Below, one piece after another: positions 1-6,300 of a stretch of 10,304 nucleotides of DNA; position 1 is the stretch's first letter, and the number at the start of each line of letters is the position of its first letter. The position numbers were made by a program, and so were the translations under genes. This stretch comes from a virus: the UHGV virus genome UHGV-1714029. The stretch is one strand, 5' to 3'. The notes below the pieces were generated by a model, which was not told the origin of the DNA, made no database searches, and saw only the letters and a program-made list of their open reading frames with translations.

Positions 1-74
1 ATGAAGTGAACGGTATTTCCCGCGTGGTGTATGACATCAGCGGCAAGCCGCCAGCGACTATTGAGTGGGAATGA
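1..74 (+). CDS. guaA: GMP synthase C-terminal end (host gene, 5' part outside window)
   Basis: Frame 3 translates to EVNGISRVVYDISGKPPATIEWE followed by TGA at 72-74; I recognise this as the conserved C-terminal tail of enterobacterial GuaA. An intrinsic terminator follows. Confidence 0.75.
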   Translation, partial: EVNGISRVVYDISGKPPATIEWE

Positions 75-122
75 TTAACAGCTAACTCATAGCAAGTCAT
101 TCCTATTCAGATGCTAATTCAA

Positions 123-153
123 CCCTCTGTTTTTACAGGGGGTTTTTGTTTTT
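123..153 (+). terminator. Rho-independent terminator downstream of guaA
   Basis: Stem CCCTCTG (123-129) pairs with CAGGGGG (136-142) with one G-U wobble, 6-nt loop, then TTTTTGTTTTT. Confidence 0.6.
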
Positions 154-202
154 ATGTATTCATTTCTATTCACTCTATACCATATTTTTCGGCGGTACAG
201 GT

Positions 203-238
203 GACGGTATTACCTTAAAGGTATACTCTCATACCGTC
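203..238. promoter_or_regulatory. Nested dyad-symmetry element upstream of int, containing an operator-like TTACC-N5-GGTAT site
   Basis: 8-bp inverted repeat GACGGTAT (203-210) / ATACCGTC (231-238) encloses TTACC-ttaaa-GGTAT (210-224), a 9/10 match to the palindrome found at the other phage promoters. Confidence 0.35.
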
Positions 239-266
239 ATGAAAATGGTTTCTATACGGGTGAATT

Positions 267-1517
267 GTGCTTACCGATACAAAATTAAAAAACCTCAAGC
301 CGCAGGACAAACTATACAAAGTCTCCGATCGTGACGGGCTGTATGTAGCTGTGCTTACGTCCGGTACGGTCTCGTTTCGCTATGACTACCGTATCAACGG
401 TCGCCGCGAAACACTGGTAATCGGGCAGTATGGGCGTGACGGTATCAGCCTGGCAGAAGCGCGGGAAGAACTGATTGCTGCAAAGAAGCTTCTTAAAGCA
501 GGCCAGTCGCCGGCTGCGGCTAAACGTGACGGTATCAAAAAGATTCGTGGTGCCGAGACGTTTGCGGTACATACCGACAGTTATATGAAACACGTCATCC
601 TGGCTGACAGTACCCGCGCAATGAAGCAGGCGGTGATCGACCGTGACATATTTCCGGTTCTTGGCAACAAAATGATGGCTGAAATTACCACATTGATGGT
701 TCGTGATTTGTGTGACCGGATTGTCGAACGCGGTGGTCGGGCAACAGCAGTACAGGCCAGGGAAATCATCAGCAGCGTATACCGTTACGCCAATGACCGT
801 GGTCATGGTTTGTTTAATCCTGCGGCTGACATTAAACCTTCGTCTATCGCCATATTTAAACCACGAGAGCGAACACTGACACCAGAAGAAATTGGCCTGT
901 TCTTCCGTACGCTGGATGCCATTGGTGCTATGGGCACTATGAAAATGGCTTTAAAGCTGGTGCTTATCACTATGGTTCGTAAAGGCGAATTCACCAATGC
1001 AACGTGGGATGAAATAGATTTTAAAAAATGGACATGGACAATTCCTTCAGACCGCATGAAGGGAAGCCGGGCGCACGTTATTTACCTGCCTAAACAGGCA
1101 CAGGATATATTGGTTGGGTTGCAGATGTGCGCTGGTGGAAGTGAATATCTGGTTCCTGGTCGTTACAATTTCCGGAAGCCATTATCTAATGCCGCGCTGA
1201 ACTCTCTGATCGACAGAACGGTGAAAATAATAAATGAAGATGGTGAGCATATTCAGGGCTTCACCGTACACGATATGCGCCGTACAGCCAGTACGTTGTT
1301 GCATGAGGCTGGTTATCCTTCAGACTGGATTGAAAAGGCTCTGGCACATGAGCAGAAAGGTGTGCGCGCCGTATATAACAAAGCGGAATACGCCAGACAG
1401 CGCGCCTACATGTTGCAGCAGTGGGCCGATATGATCGATTCCTGGATTGACGGGGAGCATACGGATCTGATTCCGTTCTCCCCGTCGAAGTTTGAGAAGT
1501 GGATGGCGGGGGAATAA
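267..1517 (+). CDS. int: Tyrosine site-specific integrase (P4/IntS-like phage integrase)
   Basis: GTG start at 267. N-terminus LTDTKLKNLKPQDKLYKVSDRDGLYVAV is typical of the integrase arm-binding domain; C-terminal catalytic region has HDMRRTASTLLHEAG (H-x-x-R) and a downstream Tyr (VYNKAEY). 416 aa. Confidence 0.9.
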   Translation: MLTDTKLKNLKPQDKLYKVSDRDGLYVAVLTSGTVSFRYDYRINGRRETLVIGQYGRDGISLAEAREELIAAKKLLKAGQSPAAAKRDGIKKIRGAETFAVHTDSYMKHVILADSTRAMKQAVIDRDIFPVLGNKMMAEITTLMVRDLCDRIVERGGRATAVQAREIISSVYRYANDRGHGLFNPAADIKPSSIAIFKPRERTLTPEEIGLFFRTLDAIGAMGTMKMALKLVLITMVRKGEFTNATWDEIDFKKWTWTIPSDRMKGSRAHVIYLPKQAQDILVGLQMCAGGSEYLVPGRYNFRKPLSNAALNSLIDRTVKIINEDGEHIQGFTVHDMRRTASTLLHEAGYPSDWIEKALAHEQKGVRAVYNKAEYARQRAYMLQQWADMIDSWIDGEHTDLIPFSPSKFEKWMAGE

Positions 1518-2763: not shown

Positions 2764-3012
2764 TCATGCCGCGTTGCTCACAGGACGATATACACGTTGC
2801 TGAACAGGAGGTTTTTTACCCTGGAACTCTGCCGGGCTTGCTGCCTGACGTTCATCAAGCCAACGCTCAACTTCGTCACGGTTCCATGCGCAGCGTTTGT
2901 CAGTGATATACCAGCGTTTAGGAAATTCACCTGCGCGCTCCATACGGTCGATAGTGCTCCATGACAGTGGCACCACCGCCAGGAGTTCCTTCTTACCTAA
3001 TGCACCTTTCAT
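2764..3012 (-). CDS. AlpA-family helix-turn-helix regulator / excisionase-like protein
   Basis: 82 aa. LLAVVPLSWSTIDRMERAGEFPKRWYITDKRCAWNRDEVERWLDE matches the AlpA/Vis-type winged-HTH pattern. SD AGAGAGG sits 5-6 nt upstream of ATG 3012. Confidence 0.75.
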   Translation of the reverse strand: MKGALGKKELLAVVPLSWSTIDRMERAGEFPKRWYITDKRCAWNRDEVERWLDERQAASPAEFQGKKPPVQQRVYRPVSNAA

Positions 3013-5463: not shown

Positions 5464-5540
5464 TTACCGTTGAGGTAATGATTATGCGTATTTGGTTTGA
5501 TGTCAATAGATATGAGTTAAAAAAATTACCCATAAGGTAA
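5464..5540 (-). promoter_or_regulatory. Leftward early promoter region with two operator palindromes (OL-like)
   Basis: Perfect TTACC-N5-GGTAA at 5464-5478 and 5526-5540, flanking a perfect minus-strand -35 hexamer TTGACA (5506-5501). A -10-like CATAAT / TAATCA lies 14-16 nt downstream, overlapping the 5464 site. Confidence 0.5.
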
Positions 5541-5597: not shown

Positions 5598-6182
5598 TTA
5601 TTGTTTATTTTTTTCGTTCTGGTTGATGACAAATTCAATGTAACTTTCGATCTTTGCTTTCTCGGTTTCGGGTAACAATGCGTAGCGCGAGCGGTCATAG
5701 TTGATGGTCGCAGGGTCGTGCGGGTGAATCAGTAATTCATAGCCGTGACGCCCGAATGCGGATGCAACATTCTCCAGGGTGGAAATGGAAACGCTGACTT
5801 CATTGTTTAACAGGCGGCTGATTGTCACCTGGGCGACGCCGGATGCGCGGTGAAGTTTTCCTTGTGTTGAAAGGTCGCGGCTTTCGCTCATCCAGCGTTC
5901 CAGGTTGTGAGCCGCCAGCTGACCAATGTCGCTTGGTCCGACAGGCTGAAAACCCTCCTGAGAAAGCGAGCGATCGATATCAAGCCAGTTACGTGGTTTA
6001 TTGGCGGCAGCTTCAATTTTTCGCGCAACCTGGTCGCCGATAACCTTCTTGCCAAGAGCCCAGCGGTTTACCAGATTTGCCTGAGTTCCAAGTTTTTCTG
6101 CCATCCGCGTCTGAACACCATTGAATTCACGGTCGATCAAGTCGTTGAGATTTTGCCTGCGGACGTCCTGGATACTTTTCAT
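5598..6182 (-). CDS. Repressor-like protein with two HTH (XRE/Cro-C1 type) domains and no S24 peptidase domain
   Basis: 194 aa. HTH 1 around TRMAEKLGTQANLVNRWALGKKVIGDQVARKIEAA; HTH 2 around ASGVAQVTISRLLNNEVSVSISTLENVASAFG. No Ala-Gly cleavage site or Ser/Lys dyad region. Divergent from a Cro-like gene across an operator-rich spacer. Confidence 0.7.
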   Translation of the reverse strand: MKSIQDVRRQNLNDLIDREFNGVQTRMAEKLGTQANLVNRWALGKKVIGDQVARKIEAAANKPRNWLDIDRSLSQEGFQPVGPSDIGQLAAHNLERWMSESRDLSTQGKLHRASGVAQVTISRLLNNEVSVSISTLENVASAFGRHGYELLIHPHDPATINYDRSRYALLPETEKAKIESYIEFVINQNEKNKQ

Positions 6183-6237: not shown

Positions 6238-6300
6238 TTACCCAACAGGTAAATGCACCTCATAGGTAACTATCCTTGATTTTTGTTACCTTATGGGTGA
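6238..6300. promoter_or_regulatory. Divergent immunity-region operator cluster (OR-like, three sites)
   Basis: TTACC-caaca-GGTAA at 6238-6252 (perfect), GCACC-tcata-GGTAA at 6255-6269 (8/10), TTACC-ttatg-GGTGA at 6286-6300 (9/10), lying between the repressor-like ATG (6182, minus) and the Cro-like ATG (6337, plus). Confidence 0.55.

Follow-up and report, generated by a model that had tools for sequence, protein, structure and literature searches.

What does a nested dyad directly in front of a prophage integrase gene do: does it place the gene under the immunity repressor, does it belong to the attachment site, or does it act in the transcript? We addressed this question for positions 203-238 of a 10,304-nucleotide stretch of the virus genome UHGV-1714029 (hereafter, the window). 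The initial annotation had described an 8-bp inverted repeat at this place, enclosing a sequence that resembles the operator palindrome of the phage. The repeat was recovered both by reading the sequence and with a repeat finder (GACGGTAT at 203-210 and ATACCGTC at 231-238), and the perfect inverted repeat is in fact 9 nt long (TGACGGTAT at 202-210 and ATACCGTCA at 231-239, 20 nt apart). The palindrome inside it, TTACCTTAAAGGTAT at 210-224, is one mismatch away from TTACC-N5-GGTAA, as had been reported. This mismatch is a change from A to T at 224, and the first base of the palindrome, T210, is common to the left arm of the repeat. The position in front of the integrase gene was also correct, with 27 bp separating the end of the dyad from the GTG start codon of int at 267.

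The window starts with the last 74 bases of guaA, stop codon included. This guaA end has a match in all 5,426 complete Escherichia coli genomes, and the match continues into the integrase gene in 566-569 of the 5,426, while in the listed genomes without the element, K-12 derivatives included, it ends at base 76. A 100% identical genome (L001) carries a 40-kb prophage between guaA and yfgI. The 17-mer core is identical at attL (60-76), at attR (40789-40805 in L001) and in the empty K-12 site; the same core was established by experiment in vB_EcoP_ZX5 and is also cited for phiV10 and epsilon15 (PMC9782041). The window region shares 98% DNA identity with phiV10 and 81% with epsilon15. The window covers the left end of a prophage of the phiV10/epsilon15-like (Uetakevirus) kind that is integrated at the 3′ end of guaA in E. 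coli. Since only bases 1-76 are shared with empty guaA sites, bases 77-266, dyad included, are phage DNA, and they constitute the arm of attP on the integrase side, which in the prophage is the phage arm of attL. The comparison with empty guaA sites, which had been proposed as a way of defining attL, thus delimited the core and led us to reject the reading of 203-238 as ordinary host DNA.

The phage also supplies a terminator downstream of the core (Table 1), which is annotated in phiV10 and epsilon15 and kept in relatives. It is predicted to replace the guaA terminator and to insulate int from guaA read-through. The stem of this terminator resembles that of the native guaA terminator, and the phage copy of the core restores the guaA reading frame and stop codon.

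Table 1. Features of the window relevant to the dyad and to integrase control (coordinates are window positions)
Feature	Position	Strand	Remarks
att core ATTGAGTGGGAATGATT	60-76	.	Host/phage junction; holds the last guaA codons and the TGA stop (72-74)
Intrinsic terminator, phage-supplied	121-152	+	10-pair stem followed by a T run (terminator scan)
Degenerate extra arm-type repeat GGCGGTAC (putative)	191-198	+	12 bp upstream of the next copy; found by alignment
Predicted arm-type site GTGACGGTAT, left dyad arm	201-210	+	Overlaps the -35-like GTGACG; invariant in 14 relatives
Operator-like palindrome TTACC-TTAAA-GGTAT	210-224	.	Candidate Rep repressor site
-10-like hexamer TATACT (TATAAT in epsilon15)	222-227	+	Putative weak int promoter; heuristic scoring
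Predicted inverted arm-type site (ATGACGGTAT on the minus strand), right dyad arm	231-240	-	9/10 match to the arm motif
int	267-1517	+	RefSeq CDS of the 100% identical genome; GTG start at 267
Arm motif GTGACGGTAT inside int	436-445	+	Codons R-D-G-I, residues 57-60; annotated in epsilon15
Second arm motif GTGACGGTAT inside int	526-535	+	Residues 87-90; annotated in epsilon15
AlpA-family gene	2764-3012	-	Pfam Phage_AlpA; leftward early operon, convergent with int
Reference operators left of rep	5464-5540	.	Two exact palindromes 62 bp apart; epsilon15 equivalents annotated 'repressor'
Rep, immunity repressor	5598-6182	-	Homologue of the Salmonella phage SPC32H repressor 5D50 (E 2e-41); Pfam HTH_3
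Reference operators between rep and the cro-like gene	6238-6300	.	6238 exact, 6255 with two mismatches, 6286 with one

The outer halves of the repeat (201-210 on the plus strand and 231-240 on the minus strand) are very probably arm-type integrase sites with the consensus GTGACGGTAT. Exact copies of this motif occur four times in the 40-kb prophage, all of them in attP or in int: one about 80 bp away from the core on the opposite attP arm (40708-40717 in L001), one at 201-210, and two inside int, at 436-445 and 526-535. The inverted copy at 231-240 is the fifth in the prophage. The motif differs from the core ATTGAGTGGGAATGATT and is found on both attP arms, and the integrase, as expected of a heterobivalent tyrosine integrase, has a separate N-terminal Arm-DNA-bind_3 domain (PF13356) at residues 2-87 (E 4e-20) in addition to Phage_int_M and Phage_integrase. 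In the epsilon15 record, the same four direct GTGACGGTAT copies are labelled as 'integrase' protein_bind features, and their status as integrase sites is, therefore, not new. A published definition of GACGGTAW arm sites was not found in the literature searched.

The distribution of the motif was assessed in 46 integrase relatives taken from species-representative genomes. In nearly all of them, down to 47% integrase identity, GACGGTA(T/A) precedes int, with hosts belonging to Enterobacterales, Morganella, Edwardsiella, Oceanimonas, Chromobacterium, Rhodocyclaceae, Cupriavidus, Caulobacter and Phenylobacterium. Each relative typically has 2-7 copies, in both orientations, with unrelated sequence between them. 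In the window and 34 related loci, GACGGTA reaches 11.3 per kb within the 300 nt upstream of int, compared to 0.20 per kb elsewhere, an enrichment of about 56-fold that spans alpha-, beta- and gammaproteobacteria. One or two direct copies followed downstream by an inverted one are a constant arrangement in relatives down to 47% identity, and many relatives carry tandem copies at 12-bp spacing. The degenerate repeat at 191-198 occupies such a tandem position, its counterpart reading GACGGTAC or GACGGTAT in Tyrion, BUCT554 and a Klebsiella phage. The 300 nt upstream of int in beta- and alphaproteobacterial relatives (L021-L047), whose hosts are very distant, keep GACGGTAW in a similar layout, made of a direct tandem pair spaced 12 bp apart, an inverted copy and one or two proximal direct ones; the guaA-targeting integrases of this set possibly include those of GIsul2-like islands.

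The two motif copies within int fall in the part of the gene that codes for the arm-binding domain and are kept down to about 59% protein identity. At 436-445, the codons GAC GGT AT are retained in 16 out of 16 relatives listed down to L023, as well as in Tolumonas (L030, 59%), while the codons flanking them vary among those relatives. At 526-535, relatives swap the amino acid from I to K and keep GACGGTA(T/A) in the DNA. This switch with GACGGTAW retained suggests that selection acts on the DNA at the in-int copies. More distant relatives lack copies inside int and have more copies upstream of it instead. A more speculative and less likely possibility is that the functional arm reaches about 450 bp through the in-int motifs, or that these serve as autoregulatory roadblocks.

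The comparison with close relatives brings up another function for the dyad. Epsilon15 (AY150271.2), phiV10 and vB_EcoP_ZX5 have a homologous region, with the same core, terminator, four GTGACGGTAT copies and dyad, but the epsilon15 record marks 26874-26912 (window 202-239) as 'RNaseIII, mRNA processing' and has no integrase-site feature on the right arm and no repressor-site feature on the inner palindrome. The dyad would, in that case, be an RNA hairpin processed in the int leader, and the predicted RNA fold (-16.1 kcal/mol, z = -3.9 compared to shuffles) agrees with this, although the same fold is expected from any two inverted copies of one protein site. Covariation gave no support for the hairpin: over 15 pairs in 14 sequences, the score was no better than that of shuffles (94/500). 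The left arm does not vary among these sequences, and several close relatives carry right-arm mutations that have no counterpart on the other side. Right-arm changes mostly break pairs or give G-U, and the sole two-sided change affects the terminal pair. RNase III stems are long and nearly continuous, extending over about two helical turns, and by that measure the stem of the dyad is short, with 9-10 bp plus 5 bp separated by a 7-nt asymmetric bulge. Moreover, the left arm would lie outside the RNA if transcription starts near 234, and a hairpin leaves unexplained both the direct motif copies and the copy on the other attP arm. We regard the hairpin as very unlikely; the comparative evidence favours protein sites, and the RNase III label in epsilon15 is a probable mis-annotation. 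As for termination, no T run follows the stem of the dyad, and this reading was rejected, the real terminator being the one at 121-152.

If the outer repeat binds the integrase, it remains to ask what the palindrome between its arms represents. The operator palindrome to which it is similar is over-represented and is the dominant one in the window. The rep gene is flanked by clusters of TTACC-N5-GGTAA operators, and exact palindromes are found at 5464, 5526, 6238, 8569 and 8631 of the window. Allowing up to two mismatches, the window contains 10 such sites compared to 2.9 expected, a number reached in none of 200 shuffles. Seven repressor sites, reading ATTACC-N5-GGTAAT, are annotated in epsilon15, and about 14 were seen in this prophage. 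The epsilon15 repressor is only 42% identical to that of the window, yet it has the same TTACC-N5-GGTAA operators; Tyrion, BUCT554 and the Klebsiella phage share these operators too, so that none of these phages offers a clean natural swap experiment. The immunity region is similar to the Rep/Ant system of SPC32H, whose repressor is a homologue, and it shares with epsilon15 the palindrome that is found at OL and OR and ahead of most transcription units.

Repressor palindromes also extend well beyond the immunity region. They occur at 13205, 16416, 33522, 34563, 34656 and 35776 of the identical genome (L001) and at 12, 2932, 19896 and 24704 of epsilon15, preceding most transcription units (terminase, portal, antirepressor, tail fibre and lysis genes). 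Given these locations, the repressor seems to work as a silencer across the whole genome in these phages. Two operator pairs, 5464/5526 to the left of rep and 8569/8631 upstream of the gene that follows the replication genes, have a fixed start-to-start spacing of 62 bp, which is kept in epsilon15 (L005, 32555/32617 and 35907/35969) and in Klebsiella, Enterobacter and Pantoea relatives. The Rep protein of SPC32H is described as binding as a tetramer (summarised in PMC9638917), and the 62-bp pairing may reflect a tetrameric repressor bridging two sites.

We consider it rather likely that the inner palindrome at 210-224 is a functional operator for the SPC32H-type Rep. Its half-sites are invariant at 10 out of 10 positions in 14 relatives, while the spacer is variable at 4 out of 5 positions, at 3 of them freely (TTAAA, CTAAA, CTTAA, TGTAA, CGAAA, ATTAC and CCAAA were found). 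A matrix was built from 73 exact operators (consensus TATTACCTTAAAGGTAATA), and the int-proximal site, TATTACCTTAAAGGTATAC, came 12th with it out of about 50,000 positions in 50 kb, ahead of three sites of the rep-cro immunity region (6286, 6255 and 6623). A site with one mismatch at most would arise by chance somewhere in the 190-nt arm with a probability of about 0.012, which drops to about 0.0007 when both arm sites are kept in place and only the intervening 20 nt are shuffled. These values also bear on the possibility that the whole dyad is an accidental short inverted repeat in AT-rich intergenic DNA. Short two-copy repeats are common, and three other weak inverted pairs exist in the same 300 nt, but GACGGTAT occurs four times in the window (203+, 231-, 438+ and 528+) compared to 0.15 expected. 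Together with the conservation in 14 relatives and the family-wide motif enrichment, this count effectively refutes a chance origin, to which we assign a negligible probability.

The association of the palindrome with Rep extends to other relatives. Among Rep-bearing relatives with the same upstream layout, it was found in every one whose upstream sequence was covered. A second layout, which cannot be aligned with the first and is found in Pantoea and Rahnella types, has xxACC-N5-GGTxx 42-46 bp before int, between inverted arm sites (TTACCAGATTGGTAG, TCACCATTTTGGTAT and ACACCATTTTGGTAA, for example). Most relatives with this layout contain the palindrome, and two Rep-bearing ones (L209 and L211) lack a good one. 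Scans of IMG/VR were informative with the Pantoea and Rahnella integrases, while the window integrase retrieved only copies 98-99% identical to it. No comparable palindrome was detected before int in about 20 relatives without Rep-type operators, and a de novo palindrome search in relatives with other immunity types revealed no clear operator families. A 6.5-kb prophage remnant in Scandinavium manionii (L014, 9797-16272), bounded by core-like repeats, keeps int, methylase, PerC, AlpA and recombination genes and the whole nested dyad, and has lost the repressor and everything beyond it. Persistence of the site in this Rep-less remnant may mean that its decay has not yet happened.

The site before int differs from the SPC32H and epsilon15 operators in that it is single, has one outer mismatch and does not appear as a Rep target in the literature searched. 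This outer mismatch (GGTAT) is always present, and the site overlaps the -10-like hexamer and has a GGTA core in common with the arm motif, so that part of its conservation could have another cause. This opens the way to a reading in which the arm-type sites alone are functional and the operator likeness of TTACC-N5-GGTAT is a by-product, its conservation deriving from the -10 of the int promoter (GGTATACT) together with GGTA cores of degenerate, arm-like sequence. The hexamer and the right half-site overlap, with the conserved mismatch T224 as the third base of the hexamer, and GGTA is shared by GACGGTA(T/A) and the operator half-site GGTAA. In addition, a nearby partner operator is absent (by sequence reading, no palindrome lies at +/-17 or +/-62 bp, the spacings of the main operators), the int-proximal palindrome is not among the repressor sites marked in the epsilon15 record, and the Scandinavium remnant keeps the palindrome without Rep. 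Nevertheless, TACC in the left half is invariant, and it lies outside both the -10 and the arm consensus, the other copies of the motif continuing with ATA, CAG or CAA. The flanks and the spacer fit the consensus of the 73 operators, and the operator-like palindrome recurs in an independent layout, only together with Rep-type immunity. We, thus, consider it unlikely, though worth bearing in mind, that the operator likeness is a by-product. Codons 2-3 of int contain a lone TTACC half-site (270-274), 60 bp downstream from the operator-like palindrome; relatives keep this half-site unchanged, which conserved Leu-Thr codons can explain.

The palindrome could also be bound by a different protein, namely an AlpA-type excisionase (recombination directionality factor, RDF) or a host bending protein, within the excision complex formed at attL. 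The AlpA-family gene of the leftward operon is a probable excisionase: AlpA homologues accompany the integrase in nearly all relatives, and alpA is the excisionase in GIsul2, an island that targets guaA (PMC9376610). Furthermore, the RDF sites of KplE1 are on attL, beside the P′ arm sites, and also repress int (PMC2951348). Against such an assignment, relatives with AlpA but without Rep-type immunity have no such palindrome, and the sequence, flanks included, fits an operator consensus that was defined independently. RDF sites are usually direct repeats, which also counts against it. We find binding by an RDF or a bending protein improbable and retain the Rep operator as the preferred assignment.

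If Rep binds here, the effect would depend on the position of the int promoter. The int gene is convergent with the leftward early operon and shielded from guaA by the terminator and, therefore, needs its own promoter in 153-266. We infer that GTGACG (201-206) and TATACT (222-227), separated by 15 nt, form a weak int promoter, the sole candidate in the arm. The score of this element is within the top quarter of random windows. It was picked up with a looser promoter matrix, and a stricter consensus promoter scan of 1-700 found none. The last base of the -10 is not T in two relatives. With this promoter, the left arm site would cover the -35, the operator would cover the spacer and the -10, and the right arm site would cover the start, near 234. 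The palindrome at 210-224 is probably a Rep operator placed over this weak promoter.

This geometry suggests a scheme in which Rep would repress int in the lysogen and Int would damp its own expression, a scheme to which we give an even chance. Expression of int would be released early after infection and on induction, alongside the convergent AlpA-type excisionase. The arm sites of the dyad, presumably bound by the N-terminal arm-binding domain of the P4-type integrase, would join the copies on the other attP arm and inside int in the recombination complex. A further effect, that Rep sitting between the arm sites within attL also physically blocks the assembly of the excision complex, besides shutting off int, appears doubtful. 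If true, it would mean that immunity directly locks prophage excision, with release only when the antirepressor removes Rep.

Arm-type sites that overlap the int promoter predict negative autoregulation. In KplE1, the promoter of IntS is embedded in attL and overlapped by arm-type sites, and its negative autoregulation has been shown experimentally; a comparable arrangement is described for P4 Int (PMC2951348). As in the intS-attL region of KplE1 (CPS-53)/HK620 and in P4 int, the int gene of the window adjoins attL and is transcribed away from the core, the order being core (60-76), arm sites (201-240) and int (267-1517, +). Also shared are the presence of arm-type (P′) sites between the core and the start codon, where they would overlap the int promoter, and the separate transcription of the RDF gene (PMC2951348). 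Here, however, the target is the 3′ end of guaA rather than a tRNA gene, the arm motif is GACGGTAW and there are two extra motif copies inside the int coding region. The regulators in KplE1 and P4 are Int and the RDF (PMC2951348), whereas the second regulator suggested here by the sequence would be the immunity repressor rather than the RDF.

Lambda offers a second comparison, as integrase expression is also tied to immunity in that phage (PL is under CI) and its arm-type and core-type sites differ as well. The lambda int gene is transcribed from PL along with xis, and an RNase III site (sib) lies beyond attP. In contrast, int of the window converges with the early leftward operon and requires a promoter of its own within attL, and any link to immunity would operate through an operator placed directly at that promoter.

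The initial annotation had presented repressor operator and attL arm-site architecture as alternatives. Both now appear to apply, on different parts of the dyad, with arm sites in the outer repeat and a candidate operator in the inner palindrome. Its suggestion that either would represent an unusual coupling of immunity and integration control was not borne out, since int promoters within attL that are overlapped by arm-type sites are widespread (KplE1 IntS and P4 Int; PMC2951348), the repressor palindrome precedes most transcription units in this phage group and the epsilon15 record already marks the left arm. The nested dyad is, in our assessment, more plausibly than otherwise a composite protein-binding region in the integrase-proximal arm of attP, that is, a control region of an ordinary kind. 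The arrangement is already partly annotated in epsilon15 and involves no new principle.

About one in ten complete E. coli genomes has this integrase at guaA, and members of the same integrase family insert phages and islands at guaA throughout Proteobacteria, the resistance island GIsul2 among them. The GACGGTAW arm motif and the likely int control region provide targets for work on prophage stability and induction in the phiV10/epsilon15 group.
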